From positions 212,396 to 276,395 of the forward strand of contig CAIVQH010000046.1 in assembly GCA_903907995.1 (NCBI GenBank): a DNA stretch of 64,000 nt, written 5' to 3'. Made by a program: the position numbers and the translations under genes. Each line of letters starts with the position of its first letter. Position 1 is the first letter of the stretch. This document shows, one piece after another, positions 1,722-45,278 of the stretch. A model generated the notes under the pieces. It ran no database searches. It saw only the letters and a list, made by a program, of their open reading frames with translations, and was not told the origin of the DNA. This DNA comes from an uncultured Verrucomicrobiota bacterium. GTDB taxonomy: Bacteria; Verrucomicrobiota; Verrucomicrobiia; Limisphaerales; UBA9464.

Positions 1722-3371
1722 CTACCGGCCCAACCGGAACTCGACGGCACGGTCGCGCGGGGAGCCGAGGCGGTTTTTGCGGACGGCATCCTGGGCATCC
1801 GTGGCCTGCTGGCTGGCGGCGATCAGCTTTTTTGCGAGCTGGTCACGCTGTTTTTCCAGATCTCGCACCTTGGCCTCCAGCGAGCGGATGGTACGGGTGT
1901 CGGCGGCGCGCGGAGACGCGGCGGCGGCCAGTTCGGCGGACTTCAGCCGCTGCAGCAGGTCCGTCTTTTCCTGTTCGAGACGGACACGCTGGCCATCCGA
2001 CTCGGTCAGCAGGGTCTTCAGCTCGCTCTCGCGCGCAAAGCTTTCGCGCACCGAATCCCGCAGGCGCGACGCCTCGTTCTCAAGCAGTTTCAATTGCACC
2101 ACCAACGCCGGATCGGAAGCCGCCGCCGTGGCGCCGTTTTTGTCCGTGGGCGGTGGCCCGGCAAGTTTGGTCGCGGCCAGACGTTCCTCGGCCGCCTTCA
2201 GTTGGGCCTGCAGTTCGGTCCGCTCGGCCTTCTCGGCGGCCAGCGCGGTCTCGACCTGTTTGGCGGCGGCCAACTGGTCCGTGAGCGCGGTGACCCGGGC
2301 GGTCAGTGACTTGTTGTCCTCCTCCAGCCGGGTGCGGACGCCCTTCTCCTTCAGCAACTGGACGGCGACCTCCTCGGCATGCGCGTTGATGCGGCTGGCG
2401 TCGGCCCGGGCCACGGCCAGGTCGGTCTCCAGCTTGTTCAGGCGCACGATGCTTTCCTCGCTCTGGCGCGCGCGCAGGTCGTTCACCTGCTTCTCCAGCT
2501 TGCCCTTGTCGAGGATGAGCTGCTCATTTTGCTGGGAGGTTTCATCCAGCTTGGCCTGGAGCTTCGCGAGCCGGGCGGAAAGGTCGGCAATCTGTTTGCC
2601 CCGTTCCGTGTCAGACTTCAGTTCGCCCACCTGTGACTTGAGCGTGCGGTTCTCGCCCTTGAGCTGCTTGAGTTCCCCGTCCTGCAGCCGCTTTAGCTCG
2701 GCTTCCAGCGCGGCCTTCTCCTTGGCCAGCGCGTTCGCTCCGAGCTTCTGGTCGAGCAACTGGCGGTTCGCCTCGTTGAGCGCGGACTGCGCCTCCTCGG
2801 CGACGACCTTGTCCACGAGGTTTTTCCGTTCGGCCTGCTGCTGCTCCAGCGTGGCCAGCAGCACCTTGTTCGTTTCCTGAAGGGTGCCGATGCGCTCGAC
2901 CGCCTGCTGAAGTTCCTTCGGGTCCACCGGGGCCGGCTGGGCGGAAAGCGCCTCGCGCAGCCTGGCCTCCAGCAGCTTCTTGTCGCCGGCCAGCTGGGCG
3001 ATCTGGGCGTTCAGCGCGTTGAACTGGCTGATGACCTCGCCGCTGGGGGCCAGCTCACTGGCCGGAACCCCGGGGGAGGCCGGCACCACCGGATCCTTCG
3101 CCGGTTCAGCGGCGTTAGGATCGGGCGGCAGCGAGGCCAGCTTTTCAGCCACGTACCGCAGACGGTAGGCGATGACCCGCTCGTTCCAGGTCGGGTAGCT
3201 GCGGCGCAGCTCGGCCAGCTTCTGCTGCGCTTCGGCATAGGCCCGGCGCGCCACGCTGATCTGCCCCCCGTCACGCGAGGCGTCCGCCTGCTGGATCAGG
3301 TTGTAAACGACGATGAAGTCGTCATCGGCCCCCGCAAAGGCGCGGGTGGCCAGCGCGATGACAAGACCCAT
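1722..3371 (-). CDS. secreted/periplasmic long coiled-coil protein (hypothetical)
   Basis: ATG at 3371 gives MGLVIALATRAFA signal peptide; ~500 aa of heptad-like A/E/K/L/Q-rich coiled coil. The track ORF starts at a GTG at 3392. Confidence 0.55.
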   Translation of the reverse strand: MGLVIALATRAFAGADDDFIVVYNLIQQADASRDGGQISVARRAYAEAQQKLAELRRSYPTWNERVIAYRLRYVAEKLASLPPDPNAAEPAKDPVVPASPGVPASELAPSGEVISQFNALNAQIAQLAGDKKLLEARLREALSAQPAPVDPKELQQAVERIGTLQETNKVLLATLEQQQAERKNLVDKVVAEEAQSALNEANRQLLDQKLGANALAKEKAALEAELKRLQDGELKQLKGENRTLKSQVGELKSDTERGKQIADLSARLAKLQAKLDETSQQNEQLILDKGKLEKQVNDLRARQSEESIVRLNKLETDLAVARADASRINAHAEEVAVQLLKEKGVRTRLEEDNKSLTARVTALTDQLAAAKQVETALAAEKAERTELQAQLKAAEERLAATKLAGPPPTDKNGATAAASDPALVVQLKLLENEASRLRDSVRESFARESELKTLLTESDGQRVRLEQEKTDLLQRLKSAELAAAASPRAADTRTIRSLEAKVRDLEKQRDQLAKKLIAASQQATDAQDAVRKNRLGSPRDRAVEFRLGR

Positions 3372-3450
3372 CAGGGTGGCAAAACGGAGCACGGCTCAGG
3401 ATATAACGGCGCGGCGGCCGGAACGCCAGCGGCGGAAGCAAAAAGTGCGC

Positions 3451-6451: not shown

Positions 6452-7051
6452 ATGCCCGCCCCGCCGGATGCCGATGCCGACCTGATGCTGCGTGTCAAAC
6501 GCGGCGACCGGGAGGCATTTGACGCCCTCATGCAGCGGTGGCAGCAGCCGGTGATCAGCTTCGTTTACCGCACCCTGCCCGATGCGGACGAGGCGGAGGA
6601 CCTTTCGCAGGCGGTGTTTGTTCAGCTGTGGAAAAGCGCCGGCCGCTACGAGGTTTCGGCCCGGTTCAGCACTTTTCTCTTCACCATCGCGCGCAACCTG
6701 TGCCTCAACGAGCTCCGCCGCCGCGCCCGGCATCCGGCCGATTCGCTCGACGAGGCGCCCCCGGACGACGAGGCGCATCCCTACCGCCAGATCGAGGACC
6801 GCCGGGAAGCCTCCGCCAGCGACGCGACCCAGAGCGCCGAACTCGTCACCAAGGTGCAGGAAGCCCTCGACGCGCTCCCCGAAAAGCAGCGCACCGCCAT
6901 CCTGCTCTGCCGCGAGGGCGAATTGAGCTACGAGGAGATCGCCGACCTGCTCGGCACCTCGCTCCAGGCCACCAAGTCCCTCATCCACCGCGGCCGGGAA
7001 ACCCTCAAGGCGCGGCTGAAGCCGTACCTGCGCACCGGAGAGTGGTCATGA
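6452..7051 (+). CDS. RNA polymerase sigma-70 ECF-family sigma factor
   Basis: Region 2 (FVQLWKSAGRYE...FSTFLFTIARN) and region 4 (LPEKQRTAILLCREGELSYEEIADLLGTSLQATKSLIHRGRETL) signatures; ATG start. Confidence 0.85.
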   Translation: MPAPPDADADLMLRVKRGDREAFDALMQRWQQPVISFVYRTLPDADEAEDLSQAVFVQLWKSAGRYEVSARFSTFLFTIARNLCLNELRRRARHPADSLDEAPPDDEAHPYRQIEDRREASASDATQSAELVTKVQEALDALPEKQRTAILLCREGELSYEEIADLLGTSLQATKSLIHRGRETLKARLKPYLRTGEWS

Positions 7052-7100: not shown

Positions 7101-7601
7101 ATGAACACGCCCGATCCCAATGCCGACTGGCTCGACGCCATCGAAAGCCGCCGGCTGACGCCGGCCGAGGCCGAGGCGCTGCGTCGCCGCTTGGAAAACC
7201 ATCCGCGCGAACGCGCCCGGTTGGCCGAGGAACTGGCCCTCAACGCCGCGTTGGAAGCGCTGCCGGCACCCCCCGCCCCCACTAATTTTGCCGCCCGGGT
7301 CTGGGCCGACATCGAGCGCGACGAACGCGCCGCCCGCCGTCGCCCGACTGGCTGGCTGGGCTGGCTCGGCCGCCTGCGTCCGGCCCGGCTGGTCGGTTTT
7401 GCCACTCTCATGGTCGCAGTCGCAGGTGGCTGGTGGCAGATCCAGCTCCACGAGCATTCAGTGCTCGCCGCCAACGCCGCCGAACTGGCTCAGACCGTCC
7501 CCGATGTGGATCTTTTGCGTGATTTCGAGGCGATTCAGGCCCTGAGAACCGCGCCCAAGGCCAGCGATGTGGACCTGATGAGTGCCCTGGCCCAGCAGTA
7601 A
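7101..7601 (+). CDS. putative anti-sigma factor (single TM)
   Basis: Directly follows the ECF sigma; GGAGG SD 5 nt upstream of ATG; one TM helix (LVGFATLMVAVAGGWW) after an Arg-rich cytoplasmic N-terminus. Assignment is positional. Confidence 0.55.
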   Translation: MNTPDPNADWLDAIESRRLTPAEAEALRRRLENHPRERARLAEELALNAALEALPAPPAPTNFAARVWADIERDERAARRRPTGWLGWLGRLRPARLVGFATLMVAVAGGWWQIQLHEHSVLAANAAELAQTVPDVDLLRDFEAIQALRTAPKASDVDLMSALAQQ

Positions 7602-7624: not shown

Positions 7625-8578
7625 ATGAACCTCCGTTGGCGAACCCTGTTTCCGCTCTTGCTGGCCGCTGGCCAGATGGCCCTGGCGGAACCGGCCTCGC
7701 CGATGTCGCAGCCACCACTGCCGCCCCTGGCCAAGTCGCTCGCGGAACAGTTTCGCGAGCTGCTCGCCGCCAACCCGGCGGAACGCCAGCGGCTGCTCGC
7801 CGGCCGTACTCCCGAGGCCCGCGTGGTGATCACGGCCAAGCTCAAGGAATTTGAGACTCTCTCATCGGCCGAGCGCGAGGTGCGCCTGCAGGTTGCCCAG
7901 CTCCAGTTTTACCTGTCGTCTTTGCTCCGGGCGGAACCGGAGGCCCGCACCAATCTCCTGAGCCGCGTCCCCGCCGAGGATCGCCCCCTGCTCGAGGAGC
8001 GGTTGAAGGCCTGGGATGCGCTTAGCCCGGAAGCACGTCAGGACATTCTCGACAGCGAGAAGTCGCTCTCCCATTTCGTCCGCCAGGAAAGCGCCGATCC
8101 CCAGCAGCTTTCCACCGCGCTGACCAAGGTGCCCGCTCCCGCCCGCCCGGAAATCGAGGCCCAGTTCGCCCGCTGGAGCGCCCTGCCCGCCGAGGAACGC
8201 GCCCGGAAGACGGCCAATTTCCAGCGCTTCTTCGATCTGAGTGAAAGCGAGCGCAACCGCACCCTGAACCGGCTGCCTGACACCGAGCGCCGGCAGATGG
8301 AGGTCGCGCTCGCCCGTTTTGCCGGCCTGCCGGCCGAGCAGCGCGACCGCTACCTGCGCGCCTTCCACCGCCTGGCCACCCTGTCGGCGGAGGAACGGGC
8401 GGAGTTTCTCGGCAACGCCGCCAAATGGCAGGCCATGTCCGCCGACGAGCGCAAGGCCTGGCGCAACCTCGTGCAGAACGCCCTGCGCCCGCCGCTGCCG
8501 CCGCCGCCGCTGCCGTTGCGCCGGACCGGAACGTCTTTGGTGGCCACGAACACCCCGGCGCAACACCTGCCAAACTGA
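7625..8578 (+). CDS. periplasmic repeat protein (DUF3106-like), third gene of the ECF module
   Basis: Signal peptide MNLRWRTLFPLLLAAGQMALA; repeated ~35-aa units (...LS..ER......F..L...ER...L...), the pattern of DUF3106 proteins commonly downstream of ECF/anti-sigma pairs. Confidence 0.55.
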   Translation: MNLRWRTLFPLLLAAGQMALAEPASPMSQPPLPPLAKSLAEQFRELLAANPAERQRLLAGRTPEARVVITAKLKEFETLSSAEREVRLQVAQLQFYLSSLLRAEPEARTNLLSRVPAEDRPLLEERLKAWDALSPEARQDILDSEKSLSHFVRQESADPQQLSTALTKVPAPARPEIEAQFARWSALPAEERARKTANFQRFFDLSESERNRTLNRLPDTERRQMEVALARFAGLPAEQRDRYLRAFHRLATLSAEERAEFLGNAAKWQAMSADERKAWRNLVQNALRPPLPPPPLPLRRTGTSLVATNTPAQHLPN

Positions 8579-8637
8579 AGGCGGTTTGAAGAAACCAGTT
8601 TCACCGTGAGTCGGTGTGGTTCAGACTGAACGCATCC

Positions 8638-9498
8638 ATGAAACACATTCTCGCCCTGCTGCTGGCCGCCCTGGCTGTTTTCCCCGTCCGGGCCGACAAA
8701 TCCATCGTGCTGATCGCCGGCACCCCGAGCCATGGCAAGGGTGAGCACGAGTTCCGCGCGGGCTGCCTGCTGCTGGCCGAGTGCCTGAACAAGGTTCCCG
8801 GCATCCACGCCAGCGTGGTCAGCAACGGCTGGCCGGAAGATGTCTCCATCCTCCGCTCGGCGAACGCCATCCTGCTCTACGCCGACGGCGGCGACGGCCA
8901 TCCCGCGATCAAGCCCGACCGCCTCAAGCTGCTCGACGAGCTGGCCTCCAAGGGCGTGGGCATCGGCGCCGCGCATTACGGCGTGGAAGTCCCGGCGGGC
9001 GATCCGGGCTTCGCGATGTTGCACTGGACCGGCGGCTATTTTGAGACGTTCTGGAGCATCAATCCGACGTGGAAGGCGGATTTCACCGGCCTGCCGTCGC
9101 ACCCGATCACCCGCGGCGTGCGGCCCTTCGCGATCAACGACGAGTGGTATTACCACATGCGCTTCGCCCCGGAGATGAAGGGAGTCACACCCATCCTCAG
9201 CGCGGTCCCACCAAAGAATACGGTCGGCCCGAACGGCCCGCACAGCGGTAACCCCTTCGTGCGCTCCGAGGTCGAGCGCGGCGAGGAGCAGACCCTGATG
9301 TGGGCCTTTGAACGGCCGGGTGGCGGGCGCGGCTTCGGCTTCACCGGCGGCCACTACCACTCGAACTGGGGCAACAACAACTTCCGTAAGGTCGTGCTGA
9401 ACGCCCTCGTCTGGATCGCCAAGGGCGAGATCCCGGGCGGCGGCGTCGAATCGACCGTCACGCCGGAACAGCTGAAGCTGAACCAGGACACGAAGTAA
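8638..9498 (+). CDS. ThuA-like (trehalose-utilisation, class-I glutamine-amidotransferase-like) secreted protein
   Basis: ATG at 8638 gives signal peptide MKHILALLLAALAVFPVRA; body ...SIVLIAGTPSHGKGEHEF...LLYADGGDGHP...GIGAAHYGVE...FTGGHYHSNWGN... resembles the ThuA family. Confidence 0.65.
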   Translation: MKHILALLLAALAVFPVRADKSIVLIAGTPSHGKGEHEFRAGCLLLAECLNKVPGIHASVVSNGWPEDVSILRSANAILLYADGGDGHPAIKPDRLKLLDELASKGVGIGAAHYGVEVPAGDPGFAMLHWTGGYFETFWSINPTWKADFTGLPSHPITRGVRPFAINDEWYYHMRFAPEMKGVTPILSAVPPKNTVGPNGPHSGNPFVRSEVERGEEQTLMWAFERPGGGRGFGFTGGHYHSNWGNNNFRKVVLNALVWIAKGEIPGGGVESTVTPEQLKLNQDTK

Positions 9499-9580: not shown

Positions 9581-9955
9581 ATGTCGCCGTTCCAGATCAT
9601 CTTCAATCCCACCAGCGCCGCCGAGCTGGCAAAGCTGCCCAAGGATCTCCAGCTCCATGTGCTCGGTGAGTTCCGGGGATTGCCCCGTGAGCTCCAGGGC
9701 GACGGCGCGGATTTCGGGCATCTCACCCGCGCCCAGCGCACGCTTACGCGCTACCGGCTGGGCGACTACCGGGTCTATTTCGAGCGGCATCCGCTCGGCG
9801 TGGTCGTCCACCGCATCCTCAGCAAGCACACGCTGAAAGATTTCCTCTTCCGCTCGAACCTCGACGGCAACGGGGAAGACGCCAAGCTGCAGGACAACCC
9901 AAAGTTCTGGGAACTGATCGAGCAGGCCAAGGGCGCAGCGAAAAAGGCTTCCTGA
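9581..9955 (+). CDS. RelE/ParE-family toxin-like protein with ~30-aa C-terminal extension; no adjacent antitoxin seen
   Basis: MSPFQIIFNPTSAAELAKLPKDLQLHVLGEF...YRLGDYRVYFERHPLGVVVHRILSKHTLKD matches the RelE/ParE fold signature (..YRiRvGDYRiiY.id......vlrIghRkd). Flanks are only 83 and 200 bp and contain no small ORF. Confidence 0.5.
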   Translation: MSPFQIIFNPTSAAELAKLPKDLQLHVLGEFRGLPRELQGDGADFGHLTRAQRTLTRYRLGDYRVYFERHPLGVVVHRILSKHTLKDFLFRSNLDGNGEDAKLQDNPKFWELIEQAKGAAKKAS

Positions 9956-10154
9956 AACGCCACGAACCGGAAATCCGGTTTCGCGAAAAGCAGGAAGCGG
10001 ATTGGCAAACGAAGGCGGGCTGATTCCTGCGGTTCGCAGCCGCCGAGCGCCTGCAGAAGGTTATTCACCACCCAAACGGGGCACTTTGTGAACAACTCTT
10101 TACCGCATCGCCATTAGGACGTCACTGACCCGTCGCAACTTTGGGAGCGAAGCG

Positions 10155-12143
10155 ATGAAAAAAGTGCTCATCCTGACGGCCGGTTTCGGCGAAGGCCACA
10201 ATGCCGCCGCCCGCAACCTGCGCGACGCGCTCGAACTCGAGTCGGACGAGGTAAAGGTCGAGATTCTTGACCTGATCGAGAGCGCGTATGGGCGCATCAA
10301 CACGCTCGTCAAAAGCACCTATCTCAAGGTCATTGATTACGCGCCGTTCGTGTGGAACGGCATCTACGGCTGGCTCAATTCCTCGTCGTGGCCCAATCCC
10401 GAGGGCCAGGTCGGCTTGGCCCGCCTGCGGCAGCATCTCGCCGACGTCCTGCGCGCCACCGAGCCGGACGTCGTGGTGACGACCTACCCGATTTACGCCC
10501 CGCTCATCCAGCAGCTTTACCGTGACCATTCCGAACGGCCTTTCCGGCTCATCTCGGTGGTGACCGACTCGATCACCGCCAACTCGATCTGGTGGCGCGC
10601 CCCGAGCGACGCCTGGATCGTGAGCAACGAGGCCACCGCCGAGGCGCTGCGGGCCGGTGGCGTGCCGGCGGACAAAGTGAAGGCGCTGGGTTTCCCGGTA
10701 AGCCCGCGCTTCGCCGAGCTCACGGATATCGAGGTGCTGCCGCCGGATGTGGGCACGACGCGGCGGATTCTTGTCATCGTCAACCACAACAAAAAGAAGG
10801 CGGCGCGGACGGTGGATGAGCTGCTCGAAATCCCCGACACGCACCTGACCATCACGGTCGGTCGCGATGCCGAGCTGAAGGCGAAGCTCGCCGAACGCAC
10901 CCGCAAGGTCTCGGACCGCGTGACCTTGCTCGGCTGGACGAACGTGATGCCGCGCCTGCTGGTGGATTCGCACCTGGTCGTGACCAAGGCCGGCGGTGCC
11001 ACCGTACAGGAGGCCGTGGCCGCCCGCTGCCCCATGATCCTCAACCACATCCTGCCCGGCCAGGAGGAGGGCAACGCCCGGCTCGTCACCGAGTACGGCC
11101 TCGGCGCGATCGCCGAACGGCGGCGCGAGATCGCGGAACTGGTGGAGGACGCCTTCAAGTACCAGGGACGGCGCTGGCGCGAATGGCGGCACAACATCGC
11201 GAAACTTTCCAAGCCGGACGCCGCCCTGCAGCTCGCGAAGCTCGTGCTCGATTTCTGCGACTCGGGCGAACGCCCGCGCAAGACCATCCCGCTCTTTGGC
11301 GACGGCCACGACCGCAGCCCGGTAAACACCTCGGCCGCCGTCGTTTCAGGCGAGTCGAAAATGCTGCTGTGCGACTTCCACACGCACACCAACTACTCCG
11401 ACGGCAAGCTGTCCGTGCCCGATCTCGTGGATTTTTATGGGCGCCGCGGTTTCGACTGCCTGTGCGTGACCGACCATCTTGCCGACCCGCGCCGCCTGCT
11501 GGGCAAACTGGCGCGGCTGACAAACCTCACGCTCGCGCCCGATCAGCTACCGGAGTACTTCGACGTGCTAGAACGCGAGCGCCGGCGCGCGTGGCGCAAG
11601 TATTCCATGCTCCTGATGGCCGGCATCGAGTTCAACAAGGACGGGCTCACCTCGAAATCCTCCGCGCATCTGCTGGGCATCGACCTGCGCTCACCGATCA
11701 ATCCCGCGCTCGACCTGCCAGAGACCATCGCGCAGATCCACACGCAGGGCGGCCTCGCCGTGGCGTCGCATCCCCACGTCATGAAGAGCGAGTGGGGCAA
11801 GAACACGCTCTATCTCTGGGGAAACCAGACGCAGTTTGCCCCGCTCATCGACGCCTGGGAAATCGCGAACCGCAACGACATCTTCACCCCGGTCGGGCAC
11901 AAGCGCCTGCCGTTCCTGGCGAACAGCGACTTCCACAAGCCCAAGCACATCGAGTCGTGGAAGACGCTGCTGCACTGCGAGAAGGATGCCGAGGCGATCA
12001 AGGACTGCATCCGCGAGAACCGGCACGTCGCGATCACGTTTTATCGTGATGATGGGGCGGCCCGGGTGCGGCAGCTTGTGGACCCGATTGGGGAGCCGCT
12101 AGCCCCCGTCCGACAGCCGGAACTGCTCGTGGCAAGATCGTAA
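10155..12143 (+). CDS. fusion protein: UgtP/MGDG-synthase-like GT28 glycosyltransferase (N) + PHP-domain metal-dependent phosphoesterase (C)
   Basis: N-terminal KKVLILTAGFGEGHNAAARNL..., ...ISVVTDSITANSIWW..., ...VTKAGGATVQEAVAARCPMILNHILPGQEEGNA... align to UgtP/MGDG synthase motifs. Residues ~390-650 LLCDFHTHTNYSDGK...CLCVTDHL...ASHPH...SDFH are PHP-type His/Asp metal ligands. Single uninterrupted 662-aa ORF; GGGAG SD before the ATG. Confidence 0.8.
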   Translation: MKKVLILTAGFGEGHNAAARNLRDALELESDEVKVEILDLIESAYGRINTLVKSTYLKVIDYAPFVWNGIYGWLNSSSWPNPEGQVGLARLRQHLADVLRATEPDVVVTTYPIYAPLIQQLYRDHSERPFRLISVVTDSITANSIWWRAPSDAWIVSNEATAEALRAGGVPADKVKALGFPVSPRFAELTDIEVLPPDVGTTRRILVIVNHNKKKAARTVDELLEIPDTHLTITVGRDAELKAKLAERTRKVSDRVTLLGWTNVMPRLLVDSHLVVTKAGGATVQEAVAARCPMILNHILPGQEEGNARLVTEYGLGAIAERRREIAELVEDAFKYQGRRWREWRHNIAKLSKPDAALQLAKLVLDFCDSGERPRKTIPLFGDGHDRSPVNTSAAVVSGESKMLLCDFHTHTNYSDGKLSVPDLVDFYGRRGFDCLCVTDHLADPRRLLGKLARLTNLTLAPDQLPEYFDVLERERRRAWRKYSMLLMAGIEFNKDGLTSKSSAHLLGIDLRSPINPALDLPETIAQIHTQGGLAVASHPHVMKSEWGKNTLYLWGNQTQFAPLIDAWEIANRNDIFTPVGHKRLPFLANSDFHKPKHIESWKTLLHCEKDAEAIKDCIRENRHVAITFYRDDGAARVRQLVDPIGEPLAPVRQPELLVARS

Positions 12144-12300
12144 TGACCGGAGCTCTTCGTCCTTCCACAAGTAGGACGGTGCGGCTCGCCCGTCCTCTAT
12201 CTTTACTTTTCAGACGGCAAAGCAGCGGGCCTCGCAGAGCGAGGCCATGAAAATAGCCGTGGGCATCGCCCACGGAAGAAGTCCGCATGCCGAAGAGTTT

Positions 12301-21713: not shown

Positions 21714-22757
21714 TTACTCCGTAGCCGCCCGCACCGCAATGGCCGGCAGTTTCCGCGTCGTCGCAAAACGGTCCGCCCCCAGCAGCACCTTCGCCAGCAG
21801 GCACAGGAGCGCCAGGGCGAGCGGCGCCTGATACAGCTCGGCGTAGTTCTTCAGGTCCTCGTGCGCCGCCGCCTCGGCCATCGGCGTCAGGATCTCGGAC
21901 CGAAGTTTCTCGAGCGCCTCGCCCGCCTCGTCGAGCCGGTAGTAGCTGCCCCCGGCGGCGGCGGCGAGCCGTTGCAGATTGCTCTCGTTCAGCCGCGAGG
22001 TGACTTCCTGGCCGAACGTGTTCTTGGCGACGCCGCCATAGTAACGGTTCACCGGCACCCGCGCGCCGCCCGGCGTGCCCACACCCACGGTGCAGATGCG
22101 GACCTGCTGCTGCCGGTGGATGCGTCGCGCGACATCCACCGGATTGCCAACGAGGTCCTCGCCGTCCGAAACGATGATGACGAGCCGGGGAGCAACCTGG
22201 TTGCTCACGAAATATCGGCTGGCGCGCTCCAGAGCGGAGGCGAGCGAACTGCCGGGATCTTCGAGCACGTTGGGATCGAGGTAGCGCAGCGTCGTCCGCA
22301 GCGCCGTGGTGTCGAAGGTGAGCGGCGCGTTCAGATAGGCCACGCCGCTGAAGCTGATCAGGCCGATCCGGTCGGCCTTGGTGTTTTCCAGAAAACGGTC
22401 GAGCGCATTGGTCGCCACCGCCCAACGGCTGGGGCGGACATCCGTCGCCATCATCGAGCGCGAGGCGTCCAGCGCCACGAGATAGGGCACGCCTTCCAGC
22501 TCGTTGGCCTCGGTGCGACGGTAAACCAGCGGCCGCGCGAGCGTCAGTCCGAGCATGATCAGGCCCAGGAGGGTGAGCAGCAGATCCAGCCGGCGACGCG
22601 AGGTGGAAAAATTCGGCTTCGCCCAGGCCCGGCCCGTGCCGCCGGCAAAGGTGGCCACCAGCCGTGCCTGCCGCCGCCGCGCCAACGCCAGCCCAAGCCA
22701 CAGCGCCCCCACGAACAGCGGGGTCAGATAGAGCAGGATGGGATGGGCGAATCTCAC
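21714..22757 (-). CDS. batB: BatB-like von Willebrand factor A (VWA) membrane protein
   Basis: GTG start overlapping the batA stop (GTGA); two N-terminal TM helices, then VWA: YLVALDASRSM...RIGLISFSG...VIIVSDGE. The track ORF carries a spurious 177-aa upstream extension. Confidence 0.75.
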   Translation of the reverse strand: MRFAHPILLYLTPLFVGALWLGLALARRRQARLVATFAGGTGRAWAKPNFSTSRRRLDLLLTLLGLIMLGLTLARPLVYRRTEANELEGVPYLVALDASRSMMATDVRPSRWAVATNALDRFLENTKADRIGLISFSGVAYLNAPLTFDTTALRTTLRYLDPNVLEDPGSSLASALERASRYFVSNQVAPRLVIIVSDGEDLVGNPVDVARRIHRQQQVRICTVGVGTPGGARVPVNRYYGGVAKNTFGQEVTSRLNESNLQRLAAAAGGSYYRLDEAGEALEKLRSEILTPMAEAAAHEDLKNYAELYQAPLALALLCLLAKVLLGADRFATTRKLPAIAVRAATE

Positions 22758-23719
22758 GGCAGCCTCCTTCGCAGCAGTTGCGTGCCCAGCAATCCGACCA
22801 GCCAAATGGCCGCCGCTGCCACCACGAACCACGGGAACAGCTCGCGCCACGACACGTAGCGCTTCTGCACCAGCTCGCGTTTCTCCAGCTGGTCGATGAG
22901 CTGGTAGATGCCGGTGAGCGCCCGCGCGTCGTTGGCCTGGAAGAACTGACCGCCAGTCATGCGGGCGACCTTGTTCAGCTCGTGGTTCGCCGCCATGGTC
23001 GGCGTCACCATCTCCGGTCCGATCAGGATTGTGTAAACCTTGATGTGCTCCCGCACCGGCAGCGGGGCCATCTCCAGCGGACGCGGCCCGGACGAATTTT
23101 CGCCGTCGGTGATGAGGATGATGACCTTGCTGCGGTTGCTGCTCTTCTTTAGGAAAGTGGTGCTGGCATTGATCGCCCAGCCGATGCCGGTGCCGGTCGC
23201 CAGCTCGGCCTCCCGCATCGCGTTCATCGCCCACTCGTGATCCAGCGTGAGCGGGCTGACCAGCCATGGCGTGCGGGCGAAGCAAACGATGCCGATGCGG
23301 TCATTCACGCGGCCCTTCACAAAATCGGTGGTGACGTGGACCAGCGCGTCCTTGCGGCTGACGCGGTGGCCGTTCAGCCGGAAATCCGTCTCCGCCATGG
23401 AGCGCGAGTAGTCCAGGGCCAGCATGATGTCGATGCCCTTGCTCGGGTCGGGAATGTCACCCCGGGGCAGTCGTGGCCGCGCCAGCGCCACGATGATGAG
23501 CGCCAGCGGCAGCAGCAGCCCGAACCACCGCCACGCTCCGGAATGCCGGCTCGCCGGCGTCCCCAACTGCGCGATGCCGCGCAGCGTCGGCACCGGTACC
23601 GAGGGCAGCGGACCGCGCCGGCCCAATCGCCACGCAAGCACGGGCAGGAGGAGCAACCCGAGCAGGACCCACGGATTCAGGAATTCCAATCCACCGAGGA
23701 GGGCCAATGACAGCGTCAT
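22754..23719 (-). CDS. batA: BatA-like VWA membrane protein
   Basis: MTLSLALLGGLEFLNPWVLLGLLLLPVLAW...IDIMLALDYSRSM...RIGIVCFAR...VIILITDGENS. Confidence 0.8.
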   Translation of the reverse strand: MTLSLALLGGLEFLNPWVLLGLLLLPVLAWRLGRRGPLPSVPVPTLRGIAQLGTPASRHSGAWRWFGLLLPLALIIVALARPRLPRGDIPDPSKGIDIMLALDYSRSMAETDFRLNGHRVSRKDALVHVTTDFVKGRVNDRIGIVCFARTPWLVSPLTLDHEWAMNAMREAELATGTGIGWAINASTTFLKKSSNRSKVIILITDGENSSGPRPLEMAPLPVREHIKVYTILIGPEMVTPTMAANHELNKVARMTGGQFFQANDARALTGIYQLIDQLEKRELVQKRYVSWRELFPWFVVAAAAIWLVGLLGTQLLRRRLP

Positions 23720-24243
23720 ACAGCGGCTCCTTTCGGCGTGGATCCCTGCCGGATGAATGCCTCGGCCGTGTCGAGAAGATGATCCTGCTCGGCGAGATCG
23801 GCCCCGCGCCGCGCAAATTTCACGAGGTCACAGAAACTGAGAAACGCGCCGAGCGCCTTGCGTTGTGTCTCCGCCAGGGCGGTGTTCTGTCGCGCCGATT
23901 CCAAAAATTCCCGTGTGGTCTGAAAGCGGATCGCCAGCTGGAAACGCCATTCCAGATAATCGCGCAGGATGTCGGAGCAACCCACCGCCAGATCGTAGGC
24001 GGAAAGCTGCGCCCGCCGGCTGCGAAGTTCGGCCAGACGCCGCAAAAACTCGGGATGCAAATCAGGCTGCAGCGGCGGCGGGCTCAGCGCCACGATCTCA
24101 CGGCGGAAAACGCGGCGCAGCATCCAGACCAGAAAAACCAGCGCCACCAGCGCCAGCACGAAGCCGGTGATGGCCCCGGGTGACTGCCACCAGGGCGGCA
24201 GCGGCACGAGCGTCAGGTCGTCGATGAGGTTCGTGCGGTTCAT
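23716..24243 (-). CDS. DUF4381-like membrane protein of the Bat operon
   Basis: ATG at 24243 overlaps the DUF58 stop (ATGA) and its own stop overlaps the batA ATG; single TM (ITGFVLALVALVFLVWML) then helical domain. Confidence 0.55.
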   Translation of the reverse strand: MNRTNLIDDLTLVPLPPWWQSPGAITGFVLALVALVFLVWMLRRVFRREIVALSPPPLQPDLHPEFLRRLAELRSRRAQLSAYDLAVGCSDILRDYLEWRFQLAIRFQTTREFLESARQNTALAETQRKALGAFLSFCDLVKFARRGADLAEQDHLLDTAEAFIRQGSTPKGAAV

Positions 24244-25157
24244 GCCACGCGACGCTTCGCCGCCTGATCGAGAAATTTCTGCAGCCGCTGGGGCCACGCG
24301 GATTCCCGGGTGTCGGTGCGGAGATCAAGTTCCGGCACGCCGCTCAGGCGGCAGAACACCTTCAGCTCCGCCAGCCGCTCTTCCCCGGCCGCGGCGTAGG
24401 CGGCCCGCACCTCGGGATCGCTGGTCTCCAGCTCGATCACCTCGCCCGTCTCGGAGTCCTGCACGAGCGCGAGTCCGACATCGGGCAGCTCCAGCTCGCG
24501 CTGGTCCACGGTGCGGAGGGCGATCATCTCGTGCCGCTGGTTGCTGGCCCGCAACGCCCGCCGCCACGCGGCCTCGTCATGGTCGTGGAAGTCGGACAGC
24601 ACGAACACGAGCGCGGAGCGGTGCAGCAGGTTGTTCAGGAAATTCAGCGCGGCATTCAATGAGGTGCCGGAAGATTTCGGCTCGGTGAAGAGGAGTTCGT
24701 GCAGCAGGCGCGTGACGTGGGCGCGCGATTTCTTGGGTGGCACGAAGCGCTCGATGCGGTCGCTGAACAGGATCATGCCCACGCGGTCGCCGTCGCGGAT
24801 GGCGCTGAAGGCGAGCGCGCCGGCGAGCACAGCGGCGAGCTCGCGCTTCGTGTCCGCCTGGGCATCGCCGCCGGGTGCGGTACCGAAGTGGCCGCTGGCC
24901 GAAACATCCACCAGCAGCATGACCACCAGCTCGCGCTCCTCGATGTGGCGCTTGATGTACGGCTTCCGCAGCCGCGCGGTGACGTTCCAGTCAATGCGCC
25001 GCACGTCGTCGCCGGGCACATATTCTCGGACGTCGGCAAAATCCATCCCGCGCCCCTTGAAAACGCTGGTGAGCCGCCCGCCCATGAGCTGCTCGCTCAC
25101 GATCCGCGCACGGACTTCGACCTGCCGGAGGCGTTTGAGATAGTCGGGGGGGAGCAT
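24240..25157 (-). CDS. DUF58 (VWA-like) protein
   Basis: ADVREYVPGDDVRRIDWNVTARLRKPYIKRHIEERELVVMLLVDVSAS is the DUF58 signature region. Confidence 0.8.
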   Translation of the reverse strand: MLPPDYLKRLRQVEVRARIVSEQLMGGRLTSVFKGRGMDFADVREYVPGDDVRRIDWNVTARLRKPYIKRHIEERELVVMLLVDVSASGHFGTAPGGDAQADTKRELAAVLAGALAFSAIRDGDRVGMILFSDRIERFVPPKKSRAHVTRLLHELLFTEPKSSGTSLNAALNFLNNLLHRSALVFVLSDFHDHDEAAWRRALRASNQRHEMIALRTVDQRELELPDVGLALVQDSETGEVIELETSDPEVRAAYAAAGEERLAELKVFCRLSGVPELDLRTDTRESAWPQRLQKFLDQAAKRRVA

Positions 25158-25160
25158 TGA

Positions 25161-25652
25161 TCACTCCATCTTCCGGCGAATCCATAAGCGCAGGCGGTCC
25201 ACCGGATGGCCTCGCAGGGCCAGCAGCGCCCTGTCGGCATCCGGTCCACCATCCCCGTAGCGGGCGACGATGTCGGTGAGCATCCGACGGCTCTGTTCCG
25301 GATCGGGCACCGGCACGCCTCCCGCCTCCTTCACATACTGAACACCGGCGAGGATCTGGTCGTAACGACCCGCGGCGGATTTCGGCAGCAGGAACTTCTT
25401 CTCGGTCCCCTTCGCATCCGTCAGGGCAATACCGATCGCGCCGCCCTCGGCCCCGTAGTAGTCGATTGAGACCTTGCGGTAAGGTTCCTGCAATCCCTGC
25501 AAATCCGCGGAGACCTTGGCGGGATCGTACCGGCACGGCTCCCGCAGGGTGTAGTAAGTGAGCCCCGCCACGAGGAGGGCGAGCACGACCACGATGACGC
25601 GGATCTTGTTGCGGAGGCTCATGGCGCGCTTCGTGTTAGGGTGATCGGGCAA
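25161..25652 (-). CDS. hypothetical membrane-anchored protein inserted between moxR and DUF58
   Basis: 163-aa ORF (alternative start MSLRNKIRV at 25622), one N-terminal TM helix; no recognisable domain. Confidence 0.45.
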   Translation of the reverse strand: MPDHPNTKRAMSLRNKIRVIVVVLALLVAGLTYYTLREPCRYDPAKVSADLQGLQEPYRKVSIDYYGAEGGAIGIALTDAKGTEKKFLLPKSAAGRYDQILAGVQYVKEAGGVPVPDPEQSRRMLTDIVARYGDGGPDADRALLALRGHPVDRLRLWIRRKME

Positions 25653-25662
25653 CCCAGCCCCA

Positions 25663-26661
25663 TCACGGCACCTTCACCTTGCCCAGCAGCGTCTGGACGA
25701 TGCTGGCGGTCGTCACTTCCTCGGCCTCCGCCTCGTAGGTGAGCAGGATGCGGTGGCGGAGCACGTCGGGGGCGATAAGCTTGATGTCATCGGGGGTGAC
25801 GTGGTCACGCCCTTCCAGCAGCGCACAGGCGCGCGCGGCCAGGGTGAGATTGATCGTGGCGCGCGGGCTGGCGCCGATGCGCACGAGGCGCTTCAGCTCC
25901 GGGGCGACGCCCTGACCGGTGGCAGCCTCGCGGGTGGCGATAACCAGGCGCACGACGTAATCCTTCACCAGCGCATCCACGTGGATCTGGTTCACCAGCG
26001 ACTGGTAACCCAGAATCTCTTCCGGTGATACGACGGCATTGAGGGAAAGGTTCGGGGCCGTCGAGGCCATGCGGTCGAGGATGACCAGTTCCTCCGACGC
26101 GCTCGGGTAGCCGACGATGACCTTCAACATGAAGCGGTCCATCTGCGCCTCCGGCAGCGGATACGTGCCTTCCTGCTCGATGGGATTCTGCGTCGCCAGC
26201 ACGAGGAAGGGCTTGGGCAGCGCCCACGTCTGGTCACCGATCGTCACCTGTCGTTCCTGCATCGCCTCGAGCAGAGCCGACTGAACCTTGCTGGGGGCGC
26301 GGTTGATTTCGTCGGCCAGGACGAGGTTGGCAAAGATGGGGCCCTGGCGCGTCGAATATGTGCCCTTCAGCGGGTCGTAAATGAGCGAGCCGGTGATGTC
26401 GCCGGGCAGCAGGTCGGGCGTGAACTGGATGCGCGAGAACTGGCAGTGCGTGGCCTGCGCGAGCGCACTGACGCTGGCGGTCTTGGCCAGACCGGGCAGC
26501 CCCTCCAGCAGCACGTGGCCGCGCGCGACCAGCGAAACCAGGAGGCGGTGGATCAGTTCGCGCTGGCCGACAATGACCTTGCCGACCTCCGCACGGACAA
26601 GGGCGAGGTGTTCCGCGGCAGCCTTGAGCTGCGTGTTCAGTTCCGGGGACGAGTTGGACAT
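25663..26661 (-). CDS. moxR: MoxR-family AAA+ ATPase
   Basis: VIVGQRELIHRLLVSLVARGHVLLEGLPGLAKT (Walker A), ...LVLATQNPIEQEGTYPLPEAQMDRF (sensor/arginine-finger region); 332 aa. Confidence 0.9.
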   Translation of the reverse strand: MSNSSPELNTQLKAAAEHLALVRAEVGKVIVGQRELIHRLLVSLVARGHVLLEGLPGLAKTASVSALAQATHCQFSRIQFTPDLLPGDITGSLIYDPLKGTYSTRQGPIFANLVLADEINRAPSKVQSALLEAMQERQVTIGDQTWALPKPFLVLATQNPIEQEGTYPLPEAQMDRFMLKVIVGYPSASEELVILDRMASTAPNLSLNAVVSPEEILGYQSLVNQIHVDALVKDYVVRLVIATREAATGQGVAPELKRLVRIGASPRATINLTLAARACALLEGRDHVTPDDIKLIAPDVLRHRILLTYEAEAEEVTTASIVQTLLGKVKVP

Positions 26662-34602: not shown

Positions 34603-36135
34603 ATGGACACACCCACTCCGCCGACCGCCTGGGAGCGCACCACCACCCGCCGCCTGCTCCGCTGGGTTTTCCGCTGGCAGACCGTGCGAAGCTCGCTGAT
34701 CGCCCTAGCCTGGGTGGTGACACTCATCGCCCTGCTCTACGGCGAGGAGAACTGGCGTGGACGCCGCGCCTGGAACAAGTACCGGCAGGAACTGGAGGCA
34801 CAGGGTGCGCAGCTGGACCTGCAGGCGTTCATTCCCCCGCCAGTCCCGGACGAACAGAATTTTGCCGCAACACCGTTTGTCATGTCGTGGTTCCCCAGAA
34901 GCGGTGGCGGCTGGGATGACAATTATTCGAAAGCGGCTGAAAAACTTCCGAGTCAGGACACCAGCCGACAGCAGTTCCTGGACTTGGCAGCCTGGGGAAC
35001 GGCTCTGAAAGCCGTCGAAGCCGGCACACTGAAATCGTACCGTCATATCGATACGGGAAAACCGGATGCCGAGTCCCGCACCCAGGCGGCCCCGGCCGTG
35101 CTGGCAGGACTGCAGGCCGACGAGGCGATCTTCCAGGAACTCCGGGCCGCCAGCCTGCGGCCCCATGCCCGCTATCCTGTGATTTACAACTTGGACAATC
35201 CGTGGGGCATCCTCTTACCGCACCTGGCCAAGATCAAAGCCACCTGCTACCGCCTGCGCCTCAGGGCCTGTGCCGAGTTGGCCGTCGGCCAATCCGACCG
35301 GGCACTGGAAGATCTGAAGCTGCTGCTCTACATGGCCGACTCGCTGAAGAATGAGCCGTTCCTGATCTCCTATCTGGTGCGTATTTCCTGCCTGGAACTC
35401 GCCACCCAGCCGGTTTGGGAGGGCCTGTCCGAACATCACTGGACGGCGGGCCAGCTCGAGGAACTTCAGGGCCGGCTTCAACGCTTCGATCTCCTGAACG
35501 ACCTGAGCCGGCCCCGGGCGGCCGAGCGCGCATGCATCATTCTGACCGCCGAACTCCTTTACCGGCAAAAATACCGGCTGAGCGAACTGGCCGAGCCCCA
35601 GTCCGGCTTATCCCCTTCATTGTGGGGAGGGGATTTTGCCAACCTGCTCGGGCGGATCGCGCCGCACGGCTGGTATTATCTGGAGCAGGTCAATGCCTGC
35701 CGTTTCTATCAGAACCAATCGCCCGGGGCCTTCGATCCGGTCCAAAAACGGATCTCGCCACGCCTGCTTGCCGCCGACGCCAAAGAGATGGAACAACAGC
35801 TTTCCAGCCAGATCCTCGCCAGGTTGTTCCAGCCCGTTTTCGCCAAATTCCCGTTCAAGGCGGCGGCGGCTCAGGCCTTGGTGGATCAGGCCGCCCTCGC
35901 CTGCGCGCTGGAACGGTGCCGGCTGGCCGAGGGTCGGTTCCCCGAGAAGCTGGAGGCGCTCGTGCCGCGCTTCATGGCCGATTTGCCCAAGGACGCGCTC
36001 ACCGGCGAACCCTACCGGTATCGCCGTGTCACCGACGCCCAGTTCCTGCTCTATTCCGTCGGGTGGGACGAGAAGGACGACGGCGGCGTATCCGGCAAAA
36101 CGCAGTTTGACGAACAGGGCGACTGGGTCTGGTAG
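34603..36135 (+). CDS. membrane-anchored periplasmic protein with GspG/pseudopilin-like C-terminal motif (third gene of the ECF module)
   Basis: N-terminal TM (SLIALAWVVTLIALLY); C-terminus ...TGEPYRYRRVTDAQFLLYSVGWDEKDDGGVSGKTQFDEQGDWVW resembles the GspG C-terminal segment (...PWGNPY.Y.....D..L.S.GADG..GGEG). Confidence 0.5.
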   Translation: MDTPTPPTAWERTTTRRLLRWVFRWQTVRSSLIALAWVVTLIALLYGEENWRGRRAWNKYRQELEAQGAQLDLQAFIPPPVPDEQNFAATPFVMSWFPRSGGGWDDNYSKAAEKLPSQDTSRQQFLDLAAWGTALKAVEAGTLKSYRHIDTGKPDAESRTQAAPAVLAGLQADEAIFQELRAASLRPHARYPVIYNLDNPWGILLPHLAKIKATCYRLRLRACAELAVGQSDRALEDLKLLLYMADSLKNEPFLISYLVRISCLELATQPVWEGLSEHHWTAGQLEELQGRLQRFDLLNDLSRPRAAERACIILTAELLYRQKYRLSELAEPQSGLSPSLWGGDFANLLGRIAPHGWYYLEQVNACRFYQNQSPGAFDPVQKRISPRLLAADAKEMEQQLSSQILARLFQPVFAKFPFKAAAAQALVDQAALACALERCRLAEGRFPEKLEALVPRFMADLPKDALTGEPYRYRRVTDAQFLLYSVGWDEKDDGGVSGKTQFDEQGDWVW

Positions 36136-36207: not shown

Positions 36208-37722
36208 TCAGTTCTTCACCAGGTCCCAGTACTCGCTCGGGATGCTGGCGAGGCCGGGGAGAAGCTGGCGGTCCAGCGCCTTTTGCAGTTCCTCGGGGGT
36301 AAGCTCCCGGCCCGCTTCTTCCGCCGAACGGACCAGCGCCTCGATCTCGGCCCGGATCTGGCCAACGAAGTTCGAGCACTGGAACTTGTAGGCTTCAGCC
36401 AGGTCATCCGCGTCGGAGCCGGTGATCGTGAGGATGATCTCCTTGTTGGGCCGGTTGAACATGGGCAGCACCAAGGTGTTGGCCTCGCTGCGCAGGTCGT
36501 CCACCGACTTTGCGACCATGGTGTCGATGTCGATGAGAAAGACGTTCTTGGCGTCGTCGCGGTATTGCCGCAGCTGGGTTTCCACGCTCATGCCCTTGAG
36601 GTTGTTGAGGCGGTCCTCCCATTCCTTAAACTCGCAGAGCATCTCCTTGGTGCCGGGGTCCACCGGACCGTAGAACTTCCCCCGATGGCGGCTGACGAAG
36701 TCATTGAAGCTCGCCTCGGTGCGGGCGAGCACCCACGAAAGCCGCTCCAGTGCGTCATGTGCGAACTGCTCCGCGTCGTCGCGGCAGCCGCCCGAGGCCT
36801 GCGCGGAACTCCAGCTGTTCAGGCTGTCGTTCGCCTTCGGGTAAAGCTCCTTGGCCTGGTCGAAGCCGTTGGTGCGGATGAATTCCTGCGTGTCCTTGTA
36901 GGTGCGGCCATAGAGGATCAGCACGCCGCCCTCGTTGGCCACGAGGCTCCGGTATTCCGCCACGCGCCGCTTGAAGTCCTCGTTCATCTGGAGGTAGGCC
37001 CGCAACGCCTCCTTCGCCACCTTCTGCGCCGTGCTCACCGCGAAGCCAGTCTTGAGCTCGAGCAGATATTTGATGGCCGAGATGGCGGCCGAGACGCTGA
37101 AGGAACCGGTGATGCCGCCGGGCGAAATCTTCTTCTTCCAGTCGAGCACATCGAGCACGGCGGCGGCGACCTGCTCCTTCATGGTGCCATGCGCGGCGGA
37201 CACGGCGTTGAGGCCGACGCGAAAGTTCTCCTGCATCTGCTGGTAGATCGCCTTTTCCCGCTCGTCGATGGAACTGTCGTTGGACTCGACGGTGCGCCAT
37301 TTCTCCTCCAGCTCGGTGGCCAGCGCCTCGAGCTTGAGCCGGATGGCGGTGATCTGGTCGCGCTTCTCCGCCACCTTGATTTCCTTCAGGCCCTCCCAGA
37401 AACGGTTTTCATCGTTGAGCACCAGCGCCCGGAAGGCAAAGAGCCCCGGGCTGGGGTCGCTCAGGCCGCTCAGCAGATCGCCAATGTAGCGGTTCAGGTC
37501 ATCCCGCATCCGGCCCACGCGGTCGCGCCATTGGTTTTCCTTGTCGGTGGCGGCACCGACGTCGTCGAGGAGCTTCTGCAGATCGTCGAGCGCCGCCTTG
37601 CGGGCGTCGAAGTAGCTGAACAGCGCCTGCCGGACCTTGGGCCGCTCGTTCTCCGGCAGCTTGGGTTCGAGCTCCTGGAGGCGCGTGATCAGTTCGCCGG
37701 TGCGTTTGAGGTAGTCGGGCAT
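36208..37722 (-). CDS. uncharacterised 504-aa cytoplasmic protein, coiled-coil rich
   Basis: ATG at 37722 (MPDYLKRTGELITRLQ...), 13 bp after the upstream gene stop; no signal peptide or known motif. The track ORF has a 160-aa junk N-terminal extension. Confidence 0.5.
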   Translation of the reverse strand: MPDYLKRTGELITRLQELEPKLPENERPKVRQALFSYFDARKAALDDLQKLLDDVGAATDKENQWRDRVGRMRDDLNRYIGDLLSGLSDPSPGLFAFRALVLNDENRFWEGLKEIKVAEKRDQITAIRLKLEALATELEEKWRTVESNDSSIDEREKAIYQQMQENFRVGLNAVSAAHGTMKEQVAAAVLDVLDWKKKISPGGITGSFSVSAAISAIKYLLELKTGFAVSTAQKVAKEALRAYLQMNEDFKRRVAEYRSLVANEGGVLILYGRTYKDTQEFIRTNGFDQAKELYPKANDSLNSWSSAQASGGCRDDAEQFAHDALERLSWVLARTEASFNDFVSRHRGKFYGPVDPGTKEMLCEFKEWEDRLNNLKGMSVETQLRQYRDDAKNVFLIDIDTMVAKSVDDLRSEANTLVLPMFNRPNKEIILTITGSDADDLAEAYKFQCSNFVGQIRAEIEALVRSAEEAGRELTPEELQKALDRQLLPGLASIPSEYWDLVKN

Positions 37723-37735
37723 GGCGGGGAAAAAT

Positions 37736-45176: not shown

Positions 45177-45278
45177 GCGGAGAACTTCCCACACACTGAC
45201 GAAGAAGCCCCGGCGGTCAATTCACGACTCGCCGGGGCTGGGAAAAGATTGTGGTGGCGGTGTCGGACAGGACCGCGT

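Follow-up and report, generated by a model that had tools for sequence, protein, structure and literature searches.

Replacement of phospholipids by phosphorus-free lipids is a major bacterial strategy when phosphate is scarce, and the only well-defined route to the diacylglycerol (DAG) that this requires is the mainly proteobacterial enzyme PlcP. PlcP and the glycosyltransferase Agt form a lipid-remodelling pair in marine and soil Proteobacteria (PMC4796936, PMC9239053). Verrucomicrobial methanotrophs are reported to have no PlcP (PMC9239053), and a route that does not depend on it is therefore conceivable. Pgt of Agrobacterium and Mesorhizobium, a characterised, processive bacterial GT21 enzyme, glycosylates DAG or ceramide in phosphate-deprived cells; a Pho box is predicted for it, and no PHP partner is given (PMC3972451). 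Plant MGD1 and bacterial UgtP (4WYI/4X1T, 9WDE) are GT-B glycosyltransferases that combine an MGDG_synth with a GT28_C lobe and have no phosphoesterase domain. TM0559 of T. maritima (PDB 2ANU) is a soluble, stand-alone PHP protein, deposited by structural genomics in 2005 as a hypothetical protein of unassigned function, and no functional study of it was found in the searched literature. The present analysis concerns a gene at positions 10155-12143 of a 64,000-nucleotide stretch (hereafter the window) from an uncultured Verrucomicrobiota bacterium (assembly GCA_903907995.1, contig CAIVQH010000046.1), in which a glycosyltransferase of the MGD1 type and a PHP domain of the TM0559 type are encoded as one polypeptide. 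The gene and its parts are as follows.

10155-12143, + strand: GT28-PHP fusion gene; intact open reading frame (ORF) of 662 amino acids (aa), with an ATG start and a TAA stop at 12141-12143; more than 100 homologues of like architecture
10155-11267, + strand: glycosyltransferase half (aa 1-371), GT-B fold with an MGDG_synth N-lobe and a GT28 C-lobe, from Pfam, alignments and Foldseek
11268-11360, + strand: variable interdomain linker (aa 372-402), predicted to be disordered; predicted local distance difference test (pLDDT) below 50 over aa 372-400
11361-12050, + strand: PHP phosphoesterase domain (aa 403-632) of the TM0559/2ANU type, from the 2ANU match and invariant ligands
12051-12140, + strand: variable C-terminal tail (aa 633-662), with low pLDDT and 0/30 columns invariant

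A preliminary description of this DNA had read the frame as a single fused protein, with a possible break near 11300-11350 or a C-terminal region other than PHP as the findings that would speak against it. The 662-aa frame on the + strand was uninterrupted, and neither a stop nor a frameshift was present around 11300-11350 in the window sequence. The Pfam comparison that had been suggested placed all three expected domains above their gathering cutoffs, i.e. MGDG_synth (PF06925) at aa 15-182 with 71.2 bits (cutoff 25), Glyco_tran_28_C (PF04101) at aa 217-296 with 24.6 bits (cutoff 22) and PHP (PF02811) at aa 407-494 with 29.1 bits (cutoff 26.4). The margin for PHP was slim and the alignment covered no more than the first third of the model; the match to 2ANU described below extends over the full length of the domain. 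A search of 5.8 billion proteins returned the homologues, which are of ~660 aa, share 60-94% identity and all have the same two-domain architecture over their full length. Their source names are Verrucomicrobiota, Pedosphaera and Opitutaceae metagenome-assembled genomes (MAGs).

Conservation of the fusion was then assessed in a scan with one genome per species, in which at least 555 genomes were found to encode a protein related to the PHP half. The best 80 were examined, and all were Verrucomicrobiota, mostly Limisphaerales or 'subdivision 3', save for a few evidently mislabelled bins. The glycosyltransferase half lay upstream in the same frame in 78 of these 80 species genomes; one of the two exceptions ends at a contig edge and the other keeps a glycosyltransferase remnant only. 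Joining of two halves that are normally separate enzymes, as had been noted, is thus real but not peculiar to this genome, being the normal form in hundreds of Verrucomicrobiota species. Neither chance nor misassembly comes anywhere near accounting for the fusion in these sequences. Conservation within the protein is highest in the PHP domain, with a mean pairwise identity of 80% and 98/230 columns invariant; the corresponding identities are 63-67% for the glycosyltransferase lobes, 27% for the linker (1/31 columns invariant) and 19% for the C-terminal tail. Both domains appear catalytically complete and under purifying selection, the PHP half being the more constrained, and neither looks like a decaying passenger. 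No conserved neighbours of the fused gene were detected among 79 loci, the commonest flanking family occurring in 11 of them, indicating a single-gene, functionally self-sufficient unit.

Two observations on individual genomes accompany this survey. One verrucomicrobial MAG (L052:4852-5889) has a PHP-only ORF of ~310 aa with a glycosyltransferase remnant at aa 341-381, either because the transferase was lost secondarily or because the assembly is at fault. Taxonomy beyond the Verrucomicrobiota was taken from source names and metagenome loci, and at eight loci (L013, L019, L029, L034, L057, L058, L061 and L068) the gene occurs at 66-78% identity in MAGs titled Klebsiella, Bifidobacteriaceae, Bifidobacterium or Akkermansia muciniphila. 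These titles look like taxonomic mislabels.

The N-terminal ~380 aa had been likened to processive diacylglycerol glycosyltransferases, and this held in comparisons with both models and structures. The first 370 aa aligned end to end with the NCBIfam diglucosyl-diacylglycerol synthase models, and the acceptor-binding N-lobe covered the MGDG_synth model in full (positions 1-169/169). Among solved structures, the closest were Arabidopsis MGD1 (E 6.7e-24) and the processive DAG beta-glucosyltransferase (E 2.3e-23), although MGD1 is only ~21-23% identical to this half. Foldseek with the AlphaFold model, in which most of the glycosyltransferase region has a pLDDT of 80-95, recovered MGD1 with E 2.2e-19 and a template modelling (TM) score of 0.80 normalised by target. 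The catalytic His15 lies in a GEGH motif that aligns with GGGH of MGD1, and the nucleotide-sugar motif PGQEEGN (aa 301-307) aligns with AGQEAGN; the G-x-G-H histidine and the GQEEGN motif are common to MGD1 and UgtP. In an alignment of 37 sequences H15, K278, G302, G306 and N307 were invariant and Q303, E304 and E305 were at least 90% conserved. A Metallophos domain was not matched anywhere in the protein by Pfam, and the group-1 glycosyltransferase models PF00534 and PF13692 scored only below their cutoffs. On these alignments the glycosyltransferase half is assigned to the GT28/MGDG-synthase family. The UgtP equivalog model NF010135 reached 141.3 bits against a cutoff of 500, so the protein is a relative of UgtP and not an ortholog; the earlier label 'UgtP/MGDG-synthase-type GT28' therefore stands for the GT28/MGDG-synthase type and not for UgtP itself.

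The PHP half, used as a C-terminal query of 268 aa, matched TM0559 over query residues 6-239 with an E-value of 7.5e-57, and Foldseek with the AlphaFold model gave a TM score of 0.78-0.79 to 2ANU. The His/Asp ligand pattern described previously (HTH...DH...H...DFH) was present as CDF-H409-T-H411, TD-H441, H505, H539 and D592-F-H594. All of these residues, together with D416 and E492, were invariant in 37 aligned homologues. By alignment to the PHP family, as opposed to a metal-bound model, we take the nine invariant His, Asp and Glu residues to be ligands of a trinuclear metal site. TM0559 has the same ligand set and shares the clade signatures DAWE and SWKT. The C-terminal half is accordingly placed, by sequence, in the TM0559 clade of the PHP superfamily. 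This clade is small, with 413 representatives at E <=1e-10 in a sensitive search of 1.84 billion cluster representatives with the PHP half alone, and includes fused forms (~650 aa), stand-alone proteins (~240 aa) and, in a few cases, proteins in which the domain is joined to response-regulator/histidine-kinase modules.

Several members of the clade have unusual architectures. In P0153 (646 aa) and P0148 (642 aa) the domain is N-terminal to a response-regulator/histidine-kinase or dCache-histidine-kinase module, an arrangement suggesting that the PHP domain can also act as a sensory or output module. A distant GT28-PHP fusion, P0155 (660 aa), is 40% identical in the PHP half and has lost several metal ligands (SGG for SDG, DT for DH and N for the D of the D-x-H motif); its PHP domain is probably inactive in that lineage. 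P0189 was considered as a second type of fusion (PHP-GT21) and rejected, its PHP part ending at residue ~157 without a D-x-H motif, and probably represents adjacent PHP and GT21 genes that were mis-joined.

The nearest stand-alone relatives of the PHP half are ~47% identical and occur in Desulfobacterota, Nitrospirota and Gemmatimonadota. In each of the first three loci inspected a GT21 gene lay 4-20 bp downstream. Among 83 stand-alone loci (i.e. these three look-ups and 80 metagenome loci) GT21 was directly downstream on the same strand in 76, with a median gap of 28 bp; as only 75 of the 83 have at least 600 bp of downstream sequence, 76/83 amounts to essentially all loci able to show it. 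The best NCBIfam model for this partner was HpnI, at 254 bits against a cutoff of 310, and the GT21 fold differs from the GT28 fold. A single PHP sub-branch is hence linked to two lipid glycosyltransferase families that are unrelated to each other, being fused to one and in an operon with the other, and this is the strongest argument for a shared pathway. Pgt belongs to the same Pfam family (Glyco_transf_21) as the stand-alone partner, a likeness at family level, and makes DAG glycolipids under phosphate deprivation (PMC3972451); it is not homologous to the GT28 half of the window protein. The TM0559 branch proper differs from this sister sub-branch, with a glycosyltransferase in 0/7 contexts, Pho genes in 1/7 and neither of them beside TM0559 itself, for which reason functional inference is limited to the sub-branch that contains the domain of the window.

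Neighbours of the stand-alone genes were annotated with Pfam and NCBIfam. A canonical Pho gene (i.e. pstS, pstCAB, psiE or alkaline phosphatase) was found within 8 kb in 19 of the 28 stand-alone loci of at least 10 kb. PstS occurred near the PHP-GT21 pair in 17 loci (TIGR02136, 318 bits against a cutoff of 207), an ABC permease and a PstB-like ATPase in 8-9, PsiE in nine and alkaline phosphatase in eight. Following GT21, nine loci had an OlsF-like bifunctional aminolipid synthase (NF052615, 399 bits, under the cutoff of 620) and eight a flippase-like LPG_synthase_TM protein (e.g. L113:4330-6186 and L138:11920-13053); GT21 and these two genes form a compact cluster for phosphorus-free lipids. 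In a WOR-3 genome (L169:3617-10699) the gene order is pstS-MGS-PHP-pstC-pstA-pstB-phoU, followed by phoB/phoR-like genes. The two extra genes in this pst operon encode an MGS-like domain protein and a PHP protein of the TM0559 branch, and the operon holds no glycosyltransferase gene.

A separate feature of the stand-alone loci is a cytoplasmic GH1 (beta-glucosidase-family) gene directly upstream of the PHP-GT21 pair, present in 59 of the 65 loci with enough sequence and on the same strand in 55 (L003-L005 and L086-L165, e.g. L092:6632-7933). It might encode a transglycosidase resembling plant SFR2 or, as another idea, might serve in glycolipid turnover.

Regions upstream of 67 fused genes were analysed for promoter motifs. 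Words such as TATTCACA and CCGTAACA were enriched at least 30-fold, TATTCACA and its variants occurring in 30 of the 67 regions against an expectation of 0.8. Half-sites of the form [G/T]T[A/C/T]AC formed 55 pairs at a spacing of exactly 11 bp (2.1 expected) and 50 pairs at 22 bp (1.1 expected), and the pairs were concentrated 30-75 bp ahead of the start codon. The consensus was GTGAA-N6-GTGAA-N6-TTMAC-N6-GTCAC-N6-GTAACA followed by a -10-like element, TAnnnT, and the half-site closely resembles CTGTCAT, the classical Pho-box half-site of E. coli. A lineage matrix built from the fused-gene sites had 78 matches in ~1 Mb, of which 58 were directly upstream of a fused gene. Since no Pho genes were found among the 20 window ORFs scanned for an internal motif control (all within 1.7-50.5 kb), the pstS and psiE genes of the stand-alone loci were used for this purpose. 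Their promoters (n=18 and n=9) contained the same 11-bp-periodic TGTAACA repeats, with 36 and 22 pairs, respectively, against an expectation of ~1, and 11-bp-periodic repeats were also present upstream of the stand-alone PHP genes. When a matrix was trained on the pstS/psiE boxes alone, the fused-gene promoters had a median score of 9.9 as compared to -7.3 for 402 control promoters drawn from the same loci; 50 of the 67 exceeded the 95th percentile of controls and 28 the 99th. The promoter elements in the window are listed below.

10061-10068, + strand: conserved word TTATTCAC, which belongs to a further enriched element of the promoter; read from the sequence
10088-10136, + strand: Pho-box-like array in which five half-sites keep an 11-bp register; degenerate version of the family consensus GTGAA-N6-TTMAC-N6-GTCAC-N6-GTAAC

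The half-sites of the window array are GTGAA (10088), TTTAC (10099), GCCAT (10110), GTCAC (10121) and GTCGC (10132). The best lineage-matrix match of the whole window on both strands was at 10093-10131 (10.9 bits; next best 4.6), and a TTAAC/GCCAT/GTCAC sub-variant was also seen in L018, L024, L040, L056 and L072. Ahead of the fused gene in the window, a promoter scan detected no -35/-10 consensus of the sigma-70 type, as expected for an activator-dependent promoter. Fused genes thus carry predicted Pho-box-type promoters at the level of the family; the evidence for the window's own copy is weaker.

An extra element, TTATTCAC ... GTGAATAAAAATGTGAA, was observed upstream of the three core repeats at window positions 10061-10092 and at the matching positions in L006-L085. 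It contains two GTGAA units in the same 11-bp register as the core repeats and may be either further sites for the regulator or the site of a second factor. Other strong matches of the repeat matrix (L037:3258-3296 on the - strand, L025:1854-1892 on the - strand and L010:2505-2610) precede genes that, read from sequence only, encode an ExbB/MotA-like protein, a prepilin-type (DUF1559-like) protein and a large secreted protein. These are possibly further members of the regulon, and the matches are not diagnostic.

Taken with the operons and promoters, these domains make it probable that the gene encodes a Pho-regulated module for glycolipid synthesis. That the protein is a self-contained lipid-remodelling enzyme of the Pho response in which the PHP domain supplies DAG we regard as an evenly balanced proposition. 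In such an enzyme, phosphate scarcity would lead a PhoB-type regulator to bind the repeat array, which replaces the -35 element, and to switch the gene on. The PHP domain, as a trinuclear-metal phosphoesterase, would cleave a phosphoester of a membrane glycerophospholipid, acting either as a phospholipase C (phospholipid to DAG and phospho-head-group) or as a phosphatidate phosphatase. Phosphorus would be freed and DAG would stay in the membrane, where the GT28 domain, a monotopic GT-B enzyme, would move a hexose from a UDP-sugar to it, yielding a phosphorus-free glycolipid. The flexible linker may hold both active sites at one membrane patch. Within this scheme we infer what the PHP domain cleaves, which sugar is transferred and to which acceptor, in which order the two reactions run, and that the array is bound by PhoB. 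More tentatively, and at somewhat less than even probability, the PHP domain would be the first lipid-active member of its superfamily and the fusion a single-polypeptide exchanger of phospholipid for glycolipid head-groups, the same step being provided for GT21 in Nitrospirota and Desulfobacterota. The preliminary description had suggested that glycosyl transfer is coupled to a phosphatase step in the making of phosphate-sparing lipids; the coupling is supported by the PHP-GT21 operons, the Pho neighbours and the Pho-box-type promoters, and the phosphoester that is cleaved is still a matter of inference.

A number of points weigh against a DAG-supplying PHP domain under Pho control. The 83 stand-alone loci are phylogenetically related and their counts overstate independence. 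Seven of them contain a separate metallophosphoesterase gene, which could be the real DAG-forming enzyme, and the contexts of the TM0559 branch mean that the ancestral PHP substrate may be a soluble phosphoester. To our knowledge no PHP-family enzyme acts on lipids, and no paper tying PHP domains to glycolipids was found in the searched literature. The acceptor of the glycosyltransferase is deduced only from family resemblance, the UgtP model score being as far below its cutoff as noted above. On the pstS/psiE-trained matrix the window array scores only 1.2 bits, at the 92nd percentile of controls. The AlphaFold (AF2) model of the whole protein has a predicted TM score of 0.55, a disordered linker and low confidence over residues 540-598, so no claim is made on an interface between the two active sites; channelling lacks structural support in a model without reliable interdomain geometry.

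Several of these points would fit a looser arrangement in which the protein is Pho-regulated but the PHP half scavenges phosphate from something soluble (such as nucleotides, sugar phosphates, glycerophosphodiesters or the phospho-head-groups that a different lipase sets free) and is joined to the synthase merely for co-expression. The PHP gene inside a pst operon lacking a glycosyltransferase, the TM0559-branch genes without glycosyltransferase neighbours and the additional Metallophos gene of seven operons are all in keeping with it, as are the soluble phosphoesters used by characterised PHP enzymes and the weak NCBIfam matches of this half to pAp phosphatase, histidinol phosphatase and RNase. 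However, GT21 adjacency in 76/83 loci and a stable GT28 fusion in hundreds of species are tighter than co-regulation needs, and the glycosyltransferase partner is constant while other nearby Pho genes vary, leaving this arrangement unlikely. The same nucleotide-directed relatives could be read as hydrolysis of the UDP by-product or of the UDP-sugar, which would pull the transferase forward and recycle phosphate; removal of product would account for a physical fusion with two distinct transferases that depend on UDP-sugars. Little phosphorus would be saved in this way, however, no precedent was found and the PHP gene in the pst operon without a glycosyltransferase is left unexplained, such that we give this explanation very little weight. 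A non-phosphorus chemistry, in which the PHP-like domain is a carboxyl or carbamate esterase or a deacetylase that trims the glycolipid (e.g. a GlcNAc-lipid, as HpnK does after HpnI), draws on the best NCBIfam match over most of the domain, the CehA/McbA carbaryl-hydrolase family (NF038032), and on HpnI as the best model of the GT21 partner. Neither score reaches its cutoff (45 bits against 80 for NF038032), all nine phosphoesterase-type metal ligands are invariant and the Pho-regulon context and Pho boxes favour phosphorus chemistry, and we consider an esterase or deacetylase improbable.

The remaining alternatives concern the glycosyltransferase. Fusions of a glycosyltransferase to a phosphatase are common where the transferase acts on a phosphorylated acceptor and the phosphatase then dephosphorylates the glycosylated product, as for trehalose-6-P synthase/phosphatase (TPS/TPP) and glucosyl-3-phosphoglycerate synthase/phosphatase (GpgS/GpgP), and a domain order of glycosyltransferase then PHP would fit this logic. 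Such systems consist of a GT20, GT4 or GT81 transferase and a HAD-type phosphatase, neither of which was detected in the protein with Pfam or NCBIfam. Moreover, the transferase here is in the DAG-glycosylating MGDG-synthase family, for which the acceptor hydroxyl is the position that bears the phosphate in phosphatidate, and GT21, the other partner, is an integral-membrane enzyme that glycosylates lipids; the reversed order is hence given a low probability. Alternatively, the acceptor might not be DAG but a polyprenyl-linked or lipid A intermediate, as in MurG-type GT28 enzymes, with the PHP domain trimming a carrier phosphate or pyrophosphate. Many homologues are auto-named 'UDP-GlcNAc:LPS GlcNAc transferase' by their sources, and MurG was matched weakly by NCBIfam (27.9 bits) and by Foldseek with a TM score of 0.74. 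The MurG score is far below the cutoff of 250, whereas the N-lobe fits the MGDG_synth model end to end and the top sequence and structure matches are MGD1 and the DAG glucosyltransferase, so that a non-DAG acceptor seems very improbable.

With DAG supply by the PHP domain as the preferred reading, the closest parallel is PlcP-Agt. Both systems couple a phosphoesterase genetically to a glycolipid glycosyltransferase, with an association with phosphate stress that is predicted for the GT28-PHP family, and the same net conversion of phospholipid to glycosyl-diacylglycerol would result. PlcP is a calcineurin-like metallophosphoesterase and Agt a GT4 enzyme, whereas the folds here are PHP and GT28 (or GT21), joined in one polypeptide in Verrucomicrobiota and known from sequence. 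As the defining folds of PlcP-Agt are absent, the GT28-PHP protein is not a member of that system; it probably works in a similar manner, by analogy and not by homology. Neither the fusion, the PHP-GT21 operon nor the promoter motif was described, experimentally or bioinformatically, in the searched literature, and public records carry generic labels such as 'PHP domain-containing protein', 'phosphotransferase' and 'processive DAG glucosyltransferase'. The gene family is a testable candidate for the missing DAG step in Verrucomicrobiota, which dominate in soil and freshwater, and the PHP-GT21 operons are candidates for the same role in Nitrospirota and Desulfobacterota. Together they constitute a well-supported, directly testable candidate for an undescribed phosphate-sparing lipid route in several abundant phyla. 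If true, renovation of lipids to spare phosphate would be widespread and PlcP-independent in abundant soil and freshwater bacteria, the PHP clade would have its first functional lead, and the marker gene and Pho-box model could be used for reading phosphorus stress in metagenomes.

The regions flanking the fused gene contain the following features.

6452-7051, upstream of the fused gene: ORF for an ECF-type sigma factor, read from the translation only
7101-7601, upstream of the fused gene: ORF for a probable anti-sigma factor, read from the translation only
7625-8578, upstream of the fused gene: DUF3106 protein, from Pfam
8614-9498, upstream of the fused gene: ThuA-like protein, from Pfam
9963-9983, + strand: hairpin CGAACCGG-AAAT-CCGGTTTCG just 3' of the upstream ORF at 9581-9955, read from the sequence and absent from the terminator-scan output
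12173-12210, + strand: terminator-like hairpin (AGGACGG / CCGTCCT) with a 10-nt loop and then a T-rich tail, 30 nt past the stop, read from the sequence; the loop is over the limit of the scan

The hairpin at 9963-9983 would fit, as weak evidence, separate transcription of the fused gene. Elsewhere in the window, the large ORFs at 1722-3392, 34603-36135 and 36208-38202 had no Pfam match. Genes for a MoxR-type AAA ATPase, a DUF58 protein and a VWA/BatA protein lie at 22754-26661 on the - strand, forming a cluster of the 'aerotolerance (Bat)' type. Another - strand gene, at 41559-45194, encodes a protein of 1210 aa with a DUF7133 domain (298 bits) and HEAT repeats.

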